Shown here one piece after another: positions 1 through 58,997 of a stretch of 64,000 bases of DNA. Source of the stretch: Eledone cirrhosa (lineage: Eukaryota); the NCBI GenBank assembly GCA_964016885.1, contig OZ024746.1, forward strand, positions 37,882,001 to 37,946,000, in the 5' to 3' direction. Below the pieces are notes generated by a model. It was not told the DNA's origin. It did not search any database and was given only the letters and a program-made list of their open reading frames with translations. Both the position numbers and the translations under genes were made by a program. How positions within the stretch are numbered: position 1 is the stretch's first letter; each line of letters begins with the position of its first letter.

Positions 1-1316
1 TAACGATATGTGCTTTTACGATTCTCTAGAGAGGCCGGAAGATAGGTAAATATTGCTGATGAGTTGTAACAACAACGAAACTAGTTCAATATTCCTTGTC
101 TGGCTTTCTGGAGAATAGAGGAAAGGTGTTTCCTCAAAAACCAGTATGACTCTAAAAACCGGTTTGTCTGTGTGTTTACATACAGAATAGCTGGCCACTC
201 ACAGTAAAGTGACCAGTGAAAAAACTTGGTACATCTACATATGTATACGTGTGTGTATTCATATACATACTAGTATTTCAGTATACATATATGGATGTAC
301 ATCTTTAACTTAATTGTTTAAGCGTCAGTCATACAAAAGTGAGTTACAAACGAAACGAAATTTAATTTCGTTTCGTTATTTGTTTTTATCGTCTCCGTTG
401 AACCGGTACTTACTCACACTCTATGCAAATTAGTCTGCCCACTACTAATTTTCATAGAAAAAGCATATAACGATATGTGCTTTTACGATTCTCTAGAGAG
501 GTCGGAAGATAGGTAAATATTGCTGATGAGTTGTAACAACAACGAAACTAGTTCAATATTCCTTGTCTGGCTTTCTGGAGAATAGAGGAAAGGTGTTTCC
601 TCAAAAACCAGTATGACTCTAAAAACCGGTTTGTCTGTGTGTTTACATACAGAATAGCTGGCCACTCACAGTAAAGTGACCAGTGAAAAAACTTGGTACA
701 TCTACATATGTATACGTGTGTGTATTCATATACATACTAGTATTTCAGTATACATATATGGATGTACATCTTTAACTTAATTGTTTAAGCGTCAGTCATA
801 CAAAAGTGAGTTACAAACGAAACGAAATTTAATTTCGTTTCGTTATTTGTTTTTATCGTCTCCGTTGAACCGGTACTTACTCACACTCTATGCAAATTAG
901 TCTGCCCACTACTAATTTTCATAGAAAAAGCATATAACGATATGTGCTTTTACGATTCTCTAGAGAGGCCGGAAGATAGGTAAATATTGCTGATGAGTTG
1001 TAACAACAACGAAACTAGTTCAATATTCCTTGTCTGGCTTTCTGGAGAATAGAGGAAAGGTGTTTCCTAAAAAACCAGTATGACTCTAAAAACCGGTTTG
1101 TCTGTGTGTTTACATACAGAATAGCTGGCCACTCACAGTAAAGTGACCAGTGAAAAAACTTGGTACATCTACATATGTATACGTGTGTGTATTCATATAC
1201 ATACTAGTATTTCAGTATACATATATGGATGTACATCTTTAACTTAATTGTTTAAGCGTCAGTCATACAAAAGTGAGTTACAAACGAAACGAAATTTAAT
1301 TTCGTTTCGTTATTTG

Positions 1317-1320
<4 letters not shown>
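1..1320 (+). repeat. Tandem array of 467-bp units (about 2.8 copies visible, runs off the left edge), retrozyme-like, one hammerhead per unit
   Basis: Near-identical units start at 1, 468 and 935. The array ends at a TA within the unit and runs into (TA)n at 1321. Confidence 0.95.
49..93 (+). ncRNA. Minimal type I hammerhead ribozyme (copies at 516-560 and 983-1027)
   Basis: AATATTG-CTGATGA-GTTG(taacaa)CAAC-GAA-ACTAGT-T-CAATATT: 7-bp stem I, intact core, 4-bp stem II, palindromic stem III, GUU cleavage triplet. Confidence 0.85.
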
Positions 1321-1348
<28 letters not shown>

Positions 1349-9914: not shown

Positions 9915-10669
9915 ATAAATGCTCTGAAATAGCGATATATATGTGAAGATAGACATAGAATATTCGAAAATATTCTGTATGTTTATAATAAACATTTTGA
10001 AGACCTAATCGCTATAGAATAGAATACGTCACGTATTACAATTAGATTCTCGATAAAAGCAAGGGAAGTAACCTACGCGTTTCATTCTTATTAGAAATTT
10101 TCAGGATTACATATCCAGTGCTTTTATCGAGAATGACACAGCTAGATACGTGATGTATTCTATTCTATAGCGATTTGGTCTTCAAAATGTTTATTATAAA
10201 CATACAGAATATTTTCGAATATTCTATGTCTATTGTAATACGTGACGTATTCTATTCTATAGCGATTAGGTCTTCAAAATGTTTATTATAAACATACAGA
10301 ATATTTTCGAATATTCTATGTCTATCTTCACATATATATCGCTATTTCAGAGCATTTATTCCAATTTCTAATTTCTGCTGGACCGGCAACCGCTCTTTCA
10401 AACCAGTTCCTGTACACAGCTAAGTATTCTATAAGTCTCTAGCTGTGTCATTCTCGATAAAAGCACTGGATATGTAATCCTGAAGATTTCTAATAAGAAT
10501 GAAACGCGTAGGTTACTTCCCTTGCTTTTATCGAGAATCTAATTGTAATACGTGACGTATTCTATTCTATAGCGATTAGGTCTTCAAAATGTTTATTATA
10601 AACATACAGAATATTTTCGAATATTCTATGTCTATCTTCACATATATATCGGTATTTCAGAGCATTTAT

Positions 10670-10904: not shown

Positions 10905-11632
10905 CCACACACACACATACATAAAAAAATAATAAATACATTCTATAGCGATTAGGTCTTCAAAATGTTTATTATAAACATGCAGAATATTTTCGAATAT
11001 TCTATGTCTATCTTCACATATATATCGCTATTTCAGAGCATTTATTCCAATTTCTAATTTCTGCCGGACCGGCAACCGCTCTTTCAAACCAGTTCCTGTA
11101 CACAGCTATGTATTCTATAAGTCTCTAGCTGTGTCATTCTCGATAAAAGCACTGGATATGTAATCCTGAAGATTTCTAATAAGAATGAAACGCGTAGGTT
11201 ACTTCCCTTGCTTTTATCGAGAATCTAATTGTAATACGTGACGTATTCTATTCTATAGCGATTAGGTCTTCAAAATGTTTATTATAAACATACAGAATAT
11301 TTTCGAATATTCTATGTCTATCTTCACATATATATCGCTATTTCAGAGCATTTATTCCAATTTCTAATTTCTGCCGGACCGGCAACCGCTCTTTCAAACC
11401 AGTTCCTGTACACAGCTAAGTATTCTATAAGTCTCTAGCTGTGTCATTCTCGATAAAAGCACTGGATATGTAATCCTGAAGATTTCTAATAAGAATGAAA
11501 CGCGTAGGTTACTTCCCTTGCTTTTATCGAGAATCTAATTGTAATACGTGACGTATTCTATTCTATAGCGATTAGGTCTTCAAAATATTTATTATAAACA
11601 TACAGAATATTTTCGAATATTCTATGTCTATC

Positions 11633-11636
<4 letters not shown>
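9911..11636. repeat. 310-bp unit retrozyme-like array (one inverted partial copy, then + strand copies)
   Basis: Units recur at 10941, 11251 and 11561, with a further copy at about 10234-10674 and an inverted partial copy at 9911-10145. Flanked by (TA)n. Confidence 0.9.
10474..10516 (+). ncRNA. Minimal type I hammerhead (copies at 11160-11202 and 11470-11512; minus-strand copy at 10068-10110 has G8>A)
   Basis: GTAATC-CTGAAGA-t-TTCT(aata)AGAA-t-GAA-ACGCGT-A-GGTTAC, enclosed by a 16-bp outer stem ATTCTCGATAAAAGCA/TGCTTTTATCGAGAAT. Confidence 0.85.
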
Positions 11637-11691
<55 letters not shown>

Positions 11692-26868: not shown

Positions 26869-26905
<37 letters not shown>

Positions 26906-27373
26906 GTATATATATATGCATGCTACTGTACGTCTGTATACATATATGTATGTACGTATACATACATACTTACATTTAAGTAAGTGCCATACTAAGAGTG
27001 AGAAATGAAATTCCGTTTTCATTTTTTTTTTCAACTAATCGTTTTCGGTATGCCTGACCGATTTAACTCACTCAATATGCAAATTAGGCTGCTCAGCCGT
27101 TAATTTTCATAAGGAAAGTATATACTTTCGAACGTTCAACTATCTGGCAGATGGGTAAACGGTGCTGATGATAGCTAACAAGCTTGAAACTAGTACATCG
27201 TTCCTGTGTCAGTGTTGAACAAAAAGGTGACGTGGTTGCCTTAACACCGTATGGCATAAATTCAGGCTGTTCGCTTTGTTGACAAACAAACGAACAAAGC
27301 GGCCGGCGTTATAATAAACGTAGGCTAAACTGATGCGTGCATATATGTATGTGTACCTGTATGCATATGTGTA

Positions 27374-27410
<37 letters not shown>

Positions 27411-27878
27411 GTATATATATATGCATGCTACTGTACGTCTGTATACATATATGTATGTACGTATACATACATACTTACATTTAAGTAAGTGCCATACTAA
27501 GAGTGAGAAATGAAATTCCGTTTTCATTTTTTTTTTCAACTAATCGTTTTCGGTATGCCTGACCGATTTAACTCACTCAATATGCAAATTAGGCTGCTCA
27601 GCCGTTAATTTTCATAAGGAAAGTATATACTTTCGAACGTTCAACTATCTGGCAGATGGGTAAACGGTGCTGATGATAGCTAACAAGCTTGAAACTAGTA
27701 CATCGTTCCTGTGTCAGTGTTGAACAAAAAGGTGACGTGGTTGCCTTAACACCGTATGGCATAAATTCAGGCTGTTCGCTTTGTTGACAAACAAACGAAC
27801 AAAGCGGCCGGCGTTATAATAAACGTAGGCTAAACTGATGCGTGCATATATGTATGTGTACCTGTATGCATATGTGTA

Positions 27879-27915
<37 letters not shown>

Positions 27916-28383
27916 GTATATATATATGCATGCTACTGTACGTCTGTATACATATATGTATGTACGTATACATACATACTTACATTTAAGTAAGTGCCAT
28001 ACTAAGAGTGAGAAATGAAATTCCGTTTTCATTTTTTTTTTCAACTAATCGTTTTCGGTATGCCTGACCGATTTAACTCACTCAATATGCAAATTAGGCT
28101 GCTCAGCCGTTAATTTTCATAAGGAAAGTATATACTTTCGAACGTTCAACTATCTGGCAGATGGGTAAACGGTGCTGATGATAGCTAACAAGCTTGAAAC
28201 TAGTACATCGTTCCTGTGTCAGTGTTGAACAAAAAGGTGACGTGGTTGCCTTAACACCGTATGGCATAAATTCAGGCTGTTCGCTTTGTTGACAAACAAA
28301 CGAACAAAGCGGCCGGCGTTATAATAAACGTAGGCTAAACTGATGCGTGCATATATGTATGTGTACCTGTATGCATATGTGTA

Positions 28384-28420
<37 letters not shown>

Positions 28421-28888
28421 GTATATATATATGCATGCTACTGTACGTCTGTATACATATATGTATGTACGTATACATACATACTTACATTTAAGTAAGT
28501 GCCATACTAAGAGTGAGAAATGAAATTCCGTTTTCATTTTTTTTTTCAACTAATCGTTTTCGGTATGCCTGACCGATTTAACTCACTCAATATGCAAATT
28601 AGGCTGCTCAGCCGTTAATTTTCATAAGGAAAGTATATACTTTCGAACGTTCAACTATCTGGCAGATGGGTAAACGGTGCTGATGATAGCTAACAAGCTT
28701 GAAACTAGTACATCGTTCCTGTGTCAGTGTTGAACAAAAAGGTGACGTGGTTGCCTTAACACCGTATGGCATAAATTCAGGCTGTTCGCTTTGTTGACAA
28801 ACAAACGAACAAAGCGGCCGGCGTTATAATAAACGTAGGCTAAACTGATGCGTGCATATATGTATGTGTACCTGTATGCATATGTGTA

Positions 28889-28925
<37 letters not shown>

Positions 28926-29394
28926 GTATATATATATGCATGCTACTGTACGTCTGTATACATATATGTATGTACGTATACATACATACTTACATTTAAG
29001 TAAGTGCCATACTAAGAGTGAGAAATGAAATTCCGTTTTCATTTTTTTTTTTCAACTAATCGTTTTCGGTATGCCTGACCGATTTAACTCACTCAATATG
29101 CAAATTAGGCTGCTCAGCCGTTAATTTTCATAAGGAAAGTATATACTTTCGAACGTTCAACTATCTGGCAGATGGGTAAACGGTGCTGATGATAGCTAAC
29201 AAGCTTGAAACTAGTACATCGTTCCTGTGTCAGTGTTGAACAAAAAGGTGACGTGGTTGCCTTAACACCGTATGGCATAAATTCAGGCTGTTCGCTTTGT
29301 TGACAAACAAACGAACAAAGCGGCCGGCGTTATAATAAACGTAGGCTAAACTGATGCGTGCATATATGTATGTGTACCTGTATGCATATGTGTA

Positions 29395-29431
<37 letters not shown>

Positions 29432-29899
29432 GTATATATATATGCATGCTACTGTACGTCTGTATACATATATGTATGTACGTATACATACATACTTACA
29501 TTTAAGTAAGTGCCATACTAAGAGTGAGAAATGAAATTCCGTTTTCATTTTTTTTTTCAACTAATCGTTTTCGGTATGCCTGACCGATTTAACTCACTCA
29601 ATATGCAAATTAGGCTGCTCAGCCGTTAATTTTCATAAGGAAAGTATATACTTTCGAACGTTCAACTATCTGGCAGATGGGTAAACGGTGCTGATGATAG
29701 CTAACAAGCTTGAAACTAGTACATCGTTCCTGTGTCAGTGTTGAACAAAAAGGTGACGTGGTTGCCTTAACACCGTATGGCATAAATTCAGGCTGTTCGC
29801 TTTGTTGACAAACAAACGAACAAAGCGGCCGGCGTTATAATAAACGTAGGCTAAACTGATGCGTGCATATATGTATGTGTACCTGTATGCATATGTGTA

Positions 29900-29936
<37 letters not shown>

Positions 29937-30004
29937 GTATATATATATGCATGCTACTGTACGTCTGTATACATATATGTATGTACGTATACATACATAC
30001 TTAC

Positions 30005-30064
<60 letters not shown>

Positions 30065-46494: not shown

Positions 46495-49400
46495 ATGGGT
46501 ATGACATTAAACTACATCCTGTGGCAAGGCTCCAGTTCGGGAGTTCAGGAGATGTGGGGAATGTGGAGTTACCCCTTAGTTGTCATGACTCCCAGGTCTG
46601 CCCTGGCCCGGGGTGGTAGTACCTGTTAGGGCTCCATTTATGGGTTAAATAACTACCTTATTCGAGTGGCGCCGGTAAGGTATTGTCAGCCATTGAAAAG
46701 AAATATGGAGAGTCGATCTAACAGCACTAGGGTTAGAGCCCCTAATTACACTGTCAAGGAGCAGCCTGGTCGTTATGACTCTGCTGGCTTAGAGCCACAG
46801 AGAGGGCCAGTGGATGATGGATCAGCTGTCTCTGAGACAAATATAAAGAATGCAGTTTTGTCCTGCAGAAGAGCCATCAAAATGGGCACTTTGAATGTGA
46901 GGACTATTCGAACGCTGGAGAAGAGAGAGGAGTTGGGACATCTGTTCGAGGAGAGTGGTATACAGATACTTGCGATCCAAGAACACAGGATTCTACACGA
47001 TGAGCCCGTGAGGAGTGTGATGATCGGGAGGAAGAGCCAGCTCATCACTACATCGGCAGTGAAGAACACAACAAATGCTGCAGTAGGAGGAGTGGGTTTT
47101 GTGTTCAGTGCAAAAACCAATCTGTTGGTGAGGGAAATAATGCCTATCTCCCCGCGAGTGTTGAGGGTGACCTTCAACGGAAACCCAAGACTGACAGTCA
47201 TCTCAGCCTATAGTCCAACCGAGGGGGACAGTGATGTGAATGCCGAGGAGTTCCATGAGGAGGTGTGCAGAGCTGTCAACACCACTCAGGCACACAATAT
47301 CCTGCTTGTTTTGGGGGACTTCAATGCACATCTGAGTAAGGAGGACAGTGAAGATCCTTGCTGGTACTTCCATAACAACACCAACCGAAATGGAAGACTA
47401 CTGAGAGACACCCTGCTGGAGGCGAACTTGATGGCGACCAACCTAAGGTTTAGGAAGAATCTGGGGAAGATGTGGACCTACATCTCAGATATGCATCTGT
47501 CCAAGTCCCAGATTGATTTCATTCTGGTGAGGAAAAAGTGGCGGAATAGTGTTCTGAACACGGAACCATACAGCTATTTCAGTACACTGGGTAGTGACCA
47601 CCGGCTTGTTATGAGTGAGGTCCGCGTGAGCCTAAGAAAGAGCAAGGCTCAGCCCCGGAGAACAATCTATGACTGGGGAGCTTTCAAGGAAGATGAGAAG
47701 CTACAGGAGAGGTTCACAGTGGAAGTGAGAAACAGGTTTAGTGCTGTGTGGAGAGTCAGAGGAGAGAGAGATTGGATGGACTGAGGAGAGTGTGACGAGG
47801 AGGTACGGGCACTTCACCAATGCAGTGGCGAAAGCAAGTGAAACCCTGGTGCCGAGGAAAAAGAACAAAGGGAAGCACGTCAGCTCTGCAAACCCAAAAG
47901 TGTGTGCAGCCAGAGAACATCTGAAAGCTGCCAGAGACCAATTCTATGCTGATCCTACGGAGGAGAGGGTGGAGACTGTGGAGGTGATGAGGGAAGAGCT
48001 CTGTACCGCTTACACTGAGGTCAGAGAGGAGGCACTGATAGAGAAGATCAGAAGTGTGGAGAGAGCGGTTGACAGATCTGGATGTAAGGAGAGCTGGATG
48101 ATCATCAACGAGATCACAGGGAGGAAGAAAAGGTGTTCGAGTCAGATCCAGGGAACGGGGCCCGAGGATAGGAAGAGGAAATGGCTAGACCATTTTAGGA
48201 CCCTACTAGGAGAGCCACCCTCCACAGCCCGTAGAACTGGGGAGATCAGGCGGCTGTTTGAGGAACTGGATGTTGAGACAGAGCCCTTCACCAGAGAGGA
48301 GCTTCAGAGAGCCAAGAAGAGTATCAAGGAGGGCAAGGCTCATGGAGTAGATGGAGTCGCATCAGAGGTGATGAAGAGGTGTGATTTTGATGATATCATC
48401 CTGGGGTTCTGTAACGGGGCACTGGAGAAAGGAGTTGCCCCGAATCAGTGGAGGATCAGTAACATCGTCCCAGTGCCAAAGAAGGGAGATCTCTCTAACA
48501 CCAACAACTACCGGGGGATCTCACTGACGTCACTTGTGGCAAAGACCCTCAACAGGATGATTCTTAACAGGATCCAGCCTGAGATGGAGAAGAAGCTCAG
48601 GGACAACCAGAACGGCTTCAGAGAGGGTAGATCAACCACCAGTCACATCCTGATGCTGAGGAGGATATTAGAGGGAGCTAGAGCAAAGTGCCTTCCTGCG
48701 GTCATGGTTTTCATTGACTTTAGGAAGGCCTTTGATTCTGTGGACCGTTACTGCCTGATGAAGATCTTGCAGGCTTATGGAATCCCCAAGAGGATAGTGG
48801 ACCTGATATCACTGCTCTACACCAACACCAAAGCCCAAGTCATTACACCTGATGGGATGACAGAGTTCTTTGAGATACTGGCTGGAGTGCTCCAGGGAGA
48901 TATATTGGCTCCCTACCTTTTTATCATCGTAGTGGACTATTGTATGCGCCTTGCACTGGAGAAACACCAGGACACTGGCTTTACTGTAGCACCGGCTCAG
49001 AGCAGGAGAGTTGGGGCGAAAAAGGTATCGGATGCTGAATTTGCCGACGATATAGTTTTGGTGACAAATACAGTGAAGGAGGCAGAGGATGTGATGCGGG
49101 AGGTTGAGACTGTGTCGATGAGTGTGGGGCTGAGAATGAATGAGACTAAAACAAAATATCTGGTAGAGAATGTTGAGAAGCCAGAGGGGATCACTAATGT
49201 AGGCGGGAAGCCGCTGGAATTGGTTGAGGAATTTCTGTATTTGGGAGCAAAGATTGGGAATACGGAAGATGATGTGGTTGAGAGGAAGAGCAAGGCCTGG
49301 GCGGCGTGTCACCACTTGAGATCGGTGTGGATGTCGGACCTTCGTAGAGACTGAAAATCCGCCTCTTCATTGCTGTAGTGGAGTCTGTGCTGCTGTATGG

Positions 49401-58118: not shown

Positions 58119-58483
58119 GATAACAAGTTATCGTTATAGGTAATCCAGTTAGAGGTTATGAATACTCCGTACTGTGGATAGTTTTAGCGTACGGCGTAGT
58201 TTGACTCAACAAGAGCATTCCTTAGGTAGCGAGTTTATGAGTTCTCGGAAATTCCTATGTAAATTAATCTTGGAGTAATAATCTGATGATTTGGTCAAGC
58301 ATACATCGTATTTAAAATCGAGTGACACAACTTCAAGTGAATAGCAATTTTAAGACAACTTAATCAATGAAACAATTGTTAATACTGTAAATAAAACCGT
58401 TCTTGTACTGTTGACCATGTTATTCTTCACTCTTTCACTATATATATATATATAAGAACATTTCGCTCTACATGGCTGAAAAC

Positions 58484-58993
58484 AATAAATGTAATCTGAG
58501 TTTTTCGAATATTAATAATAACATTCGATTAGTTTGCAATTATGCAAACAAGCCTCAATTTTATAGCCATGTCAGTAGAATGAACACTTCGCTCTTGCTG
58601 TTGTGTTGGCATTCGAACAGAACTGCAGACACTAATGTCTCTGGGTATCACCCTTTATCATACAGCTTACTGTTCACCTGGCAAACTGTCAGAGGTAGTG
58701 AAATGATATGCTATTTTCAAAAATACACAGTGTAGATCGGACTGATTTGCATATTTGCAGACTGGCTGATCAGTCAGTATATATTTTCACTAGCTCTGAG
58801 AGTTTGGCAGGTGAACAGTGAGCTGTACTGACGAAGGGTGATACCCAGAATCATCAGTGTCTGCAGTTCTGTTCGAAGGCAAACACAAGAACATGAATGA
58901 AGTGTTCATTTTACTGACATGGCTATAAAATTGAGGCTTGTTTGCAAACCAACCGAATGTTACTGTTAATATTTGAAAAACTCAGATTACATT

Positions 58994-58997
<4 letters not shown>
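58484..58997. repeat. Diverged fold-back element with a decayed hammerhead in each arm
   Basis: 58484-58710 is inverse to 58778-58997. Right arm reads GAGCTGTA-CTGACGA-a-GGGT(gat)ACCC-a-GAAT-CA(tcag)TG-TC-TGCAGTTC at 58820-58869. Confidence 0.8.

Follow-up and report, generated by a model that had tools for sequence, protein, structure and literature searches.

A putative Pol II snRNA-type promoter within hammerhead retroelements with Penelope-type insertion marks in Eledone cirrhosa

Short hammerhead-bearing repeats in the genome of Eledone cirrhosa share a conserved block upstream of the ribozyme, and on the evidence of their sequence this block is probably an snRNA-type promoter for RNA polymerase II (Pol II), lying inside retroelements that are probably mobilised by Penelope-like machinery. 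Tens of thousands of such repeats are thereby likely to drive their own transcription. In the proposed mechanism, each protein-free unit would carry a copy of a host snRNA promoter of the build found in U3 and U1/U2-class genes. Pol II would start about 72 nt 3' of the octamer, where helix I of the ribozyme begins or slightly ahead of it, and the first hammerhead would remove the short leader. Retrotransposition does not usually carry an snRNA promoter along, since the RNA starts downstream of it. Here, the unit-length RNA, either linear or ligated into a circle, would contain the promoter of the next copy because Pol II would read through the U-tract and that next promoter to the next hammerhead. 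A Penelope-like reverse transcriptase would then copy this RNA into TA microsatellites. A hairpin formed by the octamer in the self-paired RNA may act as a second, looser constraint on the same letters.

Repeat families and their octamer block

The window, that is, the whole 64,000-nt stretch of contig OZ024746.1 analysed here, contains 24 octamers, 17 of which lie inside elements of three families, A, B and C (Table 1). The octamer ATGCAAAT of family A (467-bp unit) occurs at 423 and 890, 100 nt from the CTGATGA cores at 523 and 990, and that of the family B array (505-bp unit) occurs at 14 places, for example at 26067, 88 nt from the core at 26155. Family C has its octamer at 58752 on the minus strand, 92 nt from a decayed core that begins at 58660; the distance is 93 nt in intact family C copies. 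Our re-measured distances of 100, 88 and 92 nt bear out an earlier note on this DNA, which had placed the octamer 88-100 nt 5' of the hammerhead core in all three families. Two other points of that note did not hold. The units had been taken as otherwise different, but all families can be aligned to one another at roughly 40-50% outside the block and form one lineage, so the block is common to them by descent. The GG.AGAT.GGTAAA stretch immediately 5' of the core, which the note had included in the block, belongs to the ribozyme as the 5' arm of its helix I and is no part of a promoter.

Table 1. Positions of the main features; coordinates are those of the window, except for the reverse transcriptase (RT) frames in the last two rows, which are numbered within their own loci
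Feature	Position	Strand	Remarks
Family A tandem array (467-bp unit)	1-1323	+	ends 3' at T5 run, then (TA)n
Family A hairpin and T5 run	349-387	+	hairpin 349-377, T5 run 383-387
Family A octamer+TAG element	423-433; second copy 890-900	+	matches host proximal element
Family A inverted partner arm	445-455	+	can pair with octamer in RNA, one mismatch
Family A TATA-like box	463-470	+	41-43 nt after octamer start
Family A predicted transcription start	494-497	+	TATA + 30, from host geometry
Family A type I hammerhead, extended helix I	500-582	+	core 523-553
Family B minus-strand arm, 7 cores	22445-25921	-	3' end 6 nt past T10 run, then (TA)n
Family B plus-strand arm, 8 cores	25944-30009	+	head-to-head with minus arm; short 3' end, then (TA)n
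Family B block	26067-26114	+	octamer+TAG 26067-26077, YCAG core 26083, partner arm 26091-26100, TATATA 26109-26114
Family B predicted start	near 26139	+	from host geometry
Family B hammerhead	26135-26215	+	core 26155-26185
Family C decayed arm	58455-58777	-	octamer 58752-58745; TATA-like box 42 nt on
Family C second arm	58778-58997	+	head-to-head; 5'-truncated at TATA box
Long RT frame, locus L171	3006-5822	-	938 aa with C-terminal GIY-YIG domain
Long RT frame, locus L173	1275-4565	+	second RT frame

The family A array extends 5' beyond the window, where its minus-strand head-to-head arm is located. A 25-bp direct duplication marks the junction of the inverted family B arms (25914-25969). In family C, the minus arm has its core at 58660-58628 with three core changes and its long 3' end at (TA)n; the plus arm has its core at 58828-58861 with one core change and its short 3' end at (TA)n. 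The window also holds LINE-type endonuclease and RT frames (46630-49354, plus strand) and a fourth hammerhead-like family with the core CTGAAGA at 10480, 11166 and 11476 (plus strand), which includes a 310-bp repeat at 10940-11645 and has no octamer upstream.

Genome-wide searches refer to the 3.0-Gb assembly. A pattern made of octamer+HAG, 70-95 nt, the core and GAAAC has 25,930 matches (13,263 + 12,667), and its reversed control has none (0 + 0). Anchors independent of the octamer are matched exactly 6,610 (A), 27,161 (B) and 2,301 (C) times. Further relatives, B2, D, D2 and E (391 and 413 matches), come to light with other spacings and with ATGCAAATGAG; because the octamer itself served to find D and E, it is bound to be invariant in them. 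The units (467, 505 and ~400 nt) are tandem and dispersed over many loci, no non-repeat open reading frame of 150 aa exists within the arrays, and DNA contigs from four runs gave nothing beyond variants. The octamer block is tandemly duplicated in families E (41-bp repeats) and C (32-33 bp). Family C (L187-L216) has 2-4 of these repeats, 30-130 nt 5' of the octamer, and every one contains an octamer-like word together with a GATCAGTGG word, the latter as in a host U2 promoter. In a structure-based census of 1.3 Mb of sampled DNA, the octamer is absent at other hammerhead families, the 310-bp repeat of the window included. The 30 best Rfam Hammerhead_1 matches make up one further family (L058-L087) with no exact octamer upstream, and two of its loci (L078 and L087) adjoin long open frames that look Penelope-like by eye.

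The block is conserved above the neighbouring unit sequence, as the earlier note had supposed. In the alignment of families A, B and C, octamer+NAG is invariant in 10 of 11 columns, against 10/58 columns upstream and 21/79 downstream, or 31/137 in both flanks together (a background of 23%; binomial P 3e-6, uncorrected for position). This is on par with the ribozyme core, and 6 of the 9 columns of the TATA region are invariant as well. The octamer-to-TATA distance is fixed at 41-43 nt while the TATA-to-core distance varies by 8-12 nt. Among 36 family B arms found without the octamer, columns with shared variants number 0/8 in the octamer and 18/54 downstream, which is suggestive for a small sample; families A and C have no such octamer-versus-downstream contrast within them.

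The block beside host small-RNA promoters

The repeats were compared with the host genes for U1, U2, U3, U4, U5, U6, U6atac, U12, MRP, RNase P, tRNA-Sec and SRP and with a 7SK candidate, whose polymerase classes we take to be those of other animals and those indicated by T-run ends. The spacing table leaves out eight further U6, three U3, three tRNA-Sec and seven U6atac matches, which have no promoter words and were treated as pseudogenes. Near-identical copies within arrays are omitted too, as are five copies of the U6 array whose promoter is interrupted by an insertion. Another U2 gene, L474, with its variant core, went unscored. For U6 and RNase P, the polymerase class follows the available text of PMC1761439 and PMC3499247.

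Two host promoter classes can be told apart by spacing. All seven distinct U6/U6atac/MRP/tRNA-Sec promoters have ATG(C/G)(A/T)AAT(T/G)AG at -76 to -79 with the TATA box 46-48 nt on, and RNase P and the 7SK candidate have the U1-type core at long spacing (YCAG 32-33 nt before TATA). Genes of this Pol III class end in T runs, and the four gene types checked contain no internal T4. In U1, U2, U4, U5 and U12, YCAG stands at -55 to -58, and 23-28 nt before TATA in 13 of the 14 scorable genes (16 examined). The octamer of U3 genes is degenerate and stands at -71 to -74, TATA follows 40-42 nt on, and T4 runs occur inside these genes. A TATA box is common to both classes, and its distance from the proximal element is ~6 nt longer in the Pol III class. 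A distal word of TTAYYTCCC type occurs near -260 in 12 of 22 host genes. In five of the 11 examined copies of the U6 array (L015-L025), a mobile element has inserted in the interval that separates the TATA box from the start of U6. Many U6/U6atac pseudogenes (L120-L126, L466-L473) are flanked by microsatellite or repeats, and one locus of this set, L123, abuts a reversed family C copy.

The repeats share the words of these promoters at the host spacing. A TATA-like box lies at +41 to +43 from the octamer in 8/8 family representatives, and YCAG (YTAG in one) lies at +16 in seven of the eight, 26-27 nt before TATA in B, C, D and E; family A has no YCAG core. On the octamer matrix, the repeats score 14.0-18.0 and the host genes 12.6-17.6 in leave-one-out scoring, with two background sites in 55 kb; no upstream region of U1, U2, U5, RNase P, U3 or SRP scores above 8.3. 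On the Pol II core matrix, family A reaches -8.7 and family B 0.7, against 5-16 for the host genes left out one at a time. When aligned at TATA, A and B come closest to the U3 promoters, with 25-27 of 50 positions against a median of 19, and C and D to those of U4/U2/U5. Like the host U3 and U1/U2/U4/U5/U12 promoters, the repeats have an octamer-like word at about -73, a core at about -57 and TATA at about -31; unlike them, they have a perfect octamer and no distal TTAYYTCCC-type word (0 of 4 units tested). The best 3' box scores are 4.7 (A), 1.2 (B), 6.5 (C) and 10.5 (E), most host genes scoring 9-19, and the absence of a 3' box from A and B fits read-through.

Word and spacing point in different directions on the polymerase. 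Letter for letter, the octamer of the repeats is the one found in the host Pol III-class genes; thus the 423-433 element of family A matches the proximal element of U6, U6atac, MRP and tRNA-Sec, and matches the variant word of U3 with mismatches. The spacing of 41-43 nt, in contrast, agrees with U3 and not with the Pol III-class genes, and this short octamer-TATA distance argues for a Pol II rather than a Pol III-class promoter. An initial reading as a U6-type Pol III promoter was dropped once U3, U4, U12, RNase P and 7SK were compared. Host geometry would place the start of transcription at about +72; in B, C and D, the extended helix I begins at this point, and in A it begins ~5 nt later. 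No accumulation of the 5' ends of genomic copies marks this predicted start (4/55 in B and 1/35 in C within 65-79; 1/45 in A, at 78).

The earlier proposal of an internal snRNA-like promoter is thus upheld in part: the octamer, YCAG and TATA words and their spacing match the snRNA genes of this host. Its other part, that the octamer is the distal element, has to be given up, because the host has its octamer at -71 to -79, where it is proximal, and another distal word near -260. The octamer is distal in human genes, as far as the available sources describe them.

Insertion marks, ribozymes and competing explanations

Judged by the structure of their copies, the families are non-LTR retrozymes with Penelope-type insertion marks, namely 5' truncation, an inverted partner, two 3' ends and (TA)n targets. 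The arrays of A, B and C are arranged head-to-head with both 3' ends at (TA)n. Insertions of family A have a long 3' end just past the T5 run and a short one ~70 nt earlier; 13 ends fall at unit positions 350-369 and 15 at 430-439, and 26 of these 28 are followed by (TA)3. In family C, 37 of 72 ends fall at 260-279 and 22 at 300-319. The tail is 59-74 nt long in A and B and ~40 nt in C. The genome has autonomous frames that combine RT and GIY-YIG domains (150 GIY-YIG matches scored), among them a 938-aa frame with RVT_1 and GIY-YIG. No pLTR sequence is shared with the repeats in 46 GIY-YIG and 32 other loci sampled, where the matches are inserted copies or microsatellite, and the true partner may lie outside this sample. 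Several autonomous-type loci have a TATA-like word ~25-35 nt before the hammerhead core and no octamer.

The ribozymes of families A, B, C, D and E have a type I core, three paired helices and an NUH triplet, with GUU, GUA or GUC as the cut triplet by family. Family A has a short palindromic helix III and a predicted cut after 553 (GUU); family B has U-U at the base of helix II and a predicted cut after 26185 (GUA). At the gathering threshold, Rfam gave no match in the window; the HH9 model scored 37.7 bits on family A (E 5e-8), below its gathering value of 52, and an E-value run on three loci returned microsatellite noise only. The helices of family C are the strongest (z -4.4). Its predicted cut leaves position 127, and 10 of the 58 arms at risk have their 5' end within positions 126-130 against 1.7 expected (P 6e-6), in a 5-nt window that was set after a first pass, with ends uncertain by ~2 nt and paired arms not fully independent. 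The pile-up suggests in vivo cleavage, although it could possibly reflect a stall of the reverse transcriptase instead, and genomic 5' ends at a cut site are a rare hint of hammerhead action during transposition. There is no excess at the cut site in A (1/45) or B (~1/60, by eye), as would suit weak ribozymes of the dimer type and long arrays. Another pile of family C ends, at -130, was discarded as an artefact of the reference end.

Could the conserved words be features of the RNA, such as hairpin arms or a site for a Penelope-like protein, in promoterless units that owe their transcripts to read-through from a neighbour? We consider this unlikely, even though folding lends it some weight. 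Hairpins take in both the octamer and the TATA box, and pairing in circular monomers reaches 64-69%; the octamer hairpin forms in A, B and D (z -1.3 to -4.6) and is weaker in C and E. The block is also found 35-45 nt downstream of the long reverse-transcription start, and the RNA required by an anole element reaches ~55-60 nt beyond its start sites (available text of PMC11167929). Moreover, a 2020 review from the Cervera/de la Pena group states, in its available part, that metazoan retrozymes seem to have no promoter (PMC7761336). However, two-sided changes are found in 0 of 9 pairs of the octamer helix, whose pairing (63%) is no better than that of shuffled sequences. The octamer arm is invariant while its partner arm changes, and the pairing register shifts between families; 9 of the 12 rows of this hairpin alignment were found through the octamer and bias it towards invariance. 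One host U6 region also folds. Purely RNA-borne features would predict no match to host promoter words at host spacing, and they would have to accommodate the absence of the block at the hammerheads examined beside autonomous RT/GIY-YIG frames, although these frames may not include the true partner.

Quite improbable, in our judgement, is a U6-type (Pol III, type 3) promoter, of which most transcripts would stop at the T-run, ahead of the next promoter, while rare read-through RNAs would become stable circles that spread. Besides the octamer+NAG word of the Pol III-class genes, what recommends it is that the units are free of T4 for 354 (A) and 371 (B) nt from the predicted start, and that the long 3' end of insertions falls at the first T-run. 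But a stretch free of T4 is no more than chance allows (P 0.05-0.8 in five units), and the TATA box is 4-6 nt closer than in 7/7 Pol III-class octamer genes. Most templates ran through T4-T10: among the family B arms found without the octamer, 44/60 extend past the octamer and 29 past the hairpin and T-run, and 22/45 family A arms pass -117. Arms that span the T-run are hard to square with a Pol III that stops at T4-T10. Furthermore, both 3' ends overlap the (TA)n target by TTTA-type sequence, which explains the T-run as a priming site. That the block is an inherited relic or a chance word with no present function is very improbable: the families do share ancestry and the octamer contrast is confined to the small family B sample, but core-like invariance over the background and a TATA spacing that stays fixed while the ribozyme distance drifts both speak against it.

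If the Pol II promoter reading is extended to the history of the elements, three parts can be joined, a combination we regard as conceivable yet somewhat doubtful. An animal retrozyme clade would have taken a host snRNA promoter, which would then have been mobilised by tandem read-through and ribozyme cutting. The promoter would be a hybrid that sets the strong Pol III-class octamer at the shorter distance typical of Pol II and so lets transcription run on through U-tracts. Finally, ribozyme strength would decide whether a family spreads as hammerhead-cut monomers (C) or as long arrays (A and B).

Relation to known hammerhead repeats

Newt satellite 2 is a hammerhead repeat that uses an octamer. 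The internal promoter of this satellite (Coats, Zhang and Epstein 1994) is of snRNA type and used by Pol II, according to the available text of PMC2220036 and PMC6765202. The repeats described here resemble it as hammerhead tandem repeats with an internal snRNA-type Pol II promoter, in their case predicted from sequence, and differ from what is described of it in their proximal octamer and host U3-type layout with a TATA box. The promoter of the Schistosoma Sm-alpha repeats is of A/B-box type. In these hammerhead SINE-like repeats, a Pol III promoter inside the unit drives the next unit (PMC6765202, in part); the same dependence on tandem copies is proposed here, although the block is of the upstream snRNA type.

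Among metazoan non-LTR retrozymes, no promoter is described in the accessible portions of Cervera and de la Pena 2020 (PMC7229834) or of Li, Clavereau and Pollet 2026 (10.64898/2026.07.22.740005). Our repeats agree with the retrozymes as portrayed in such sources in having a type I hammerhead per short AT-rich non-coding tandem unit and in the co-occurrence of Penelope-like elements, and their weak helix III or U-U at helix II recalls the motifs reported from axolotl, but unlike the retrozymes described they carry a predicted promoter. Penelope-like elements themselves are characterised by 5' truncation, an inverted 5'-truncated partner, a tail, AT-rich or microsatellite targets and a promoter in the upstream copy, the tail of 30-40 nt arising from two reverse-transcription start sites (Craig et al. 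2021, PMC8557442; Frangieh et al. 2024, PMC11167929; both in part). The repeats share the truncation, the inverted partner, the two 3' ends and the (TA)n targets, and their predicted promoter would likewise lie in the upstream copy; unlike the elements in those accounts, they have no open reading frame, and their tails exceed 30-40 nt in A and B (~40 nt in C). In addition, the available text of Frangieh et al. reports no reads that end at the ribozyme cut, a position at which many family C insertions have their 5' end.

The repeats would work like newt satellite 2, and our literature search, which stopped short of subscription papers and bioRxiv supplements, found no account of this promoter or of these families. 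The spacing rule that separates the two host snRNA promoter classes, and the U6 promoter sequences, are useful in themselves. In the sources available to us, the newt and schistosome repeats are old exceptions to the promoterless view of animal retrozymes, which are transcribed in all tissues. Our analysis gives a testable prediction of promoter, start site and polymerase for an invertebrate retrozyme. If the capture of a host promoter is real, the Eledone repeats and newt satellite 2 would represent a repeated solution, which would explain constitutive retrozyme expression and show how protein-free jumping RNAs get expressed.
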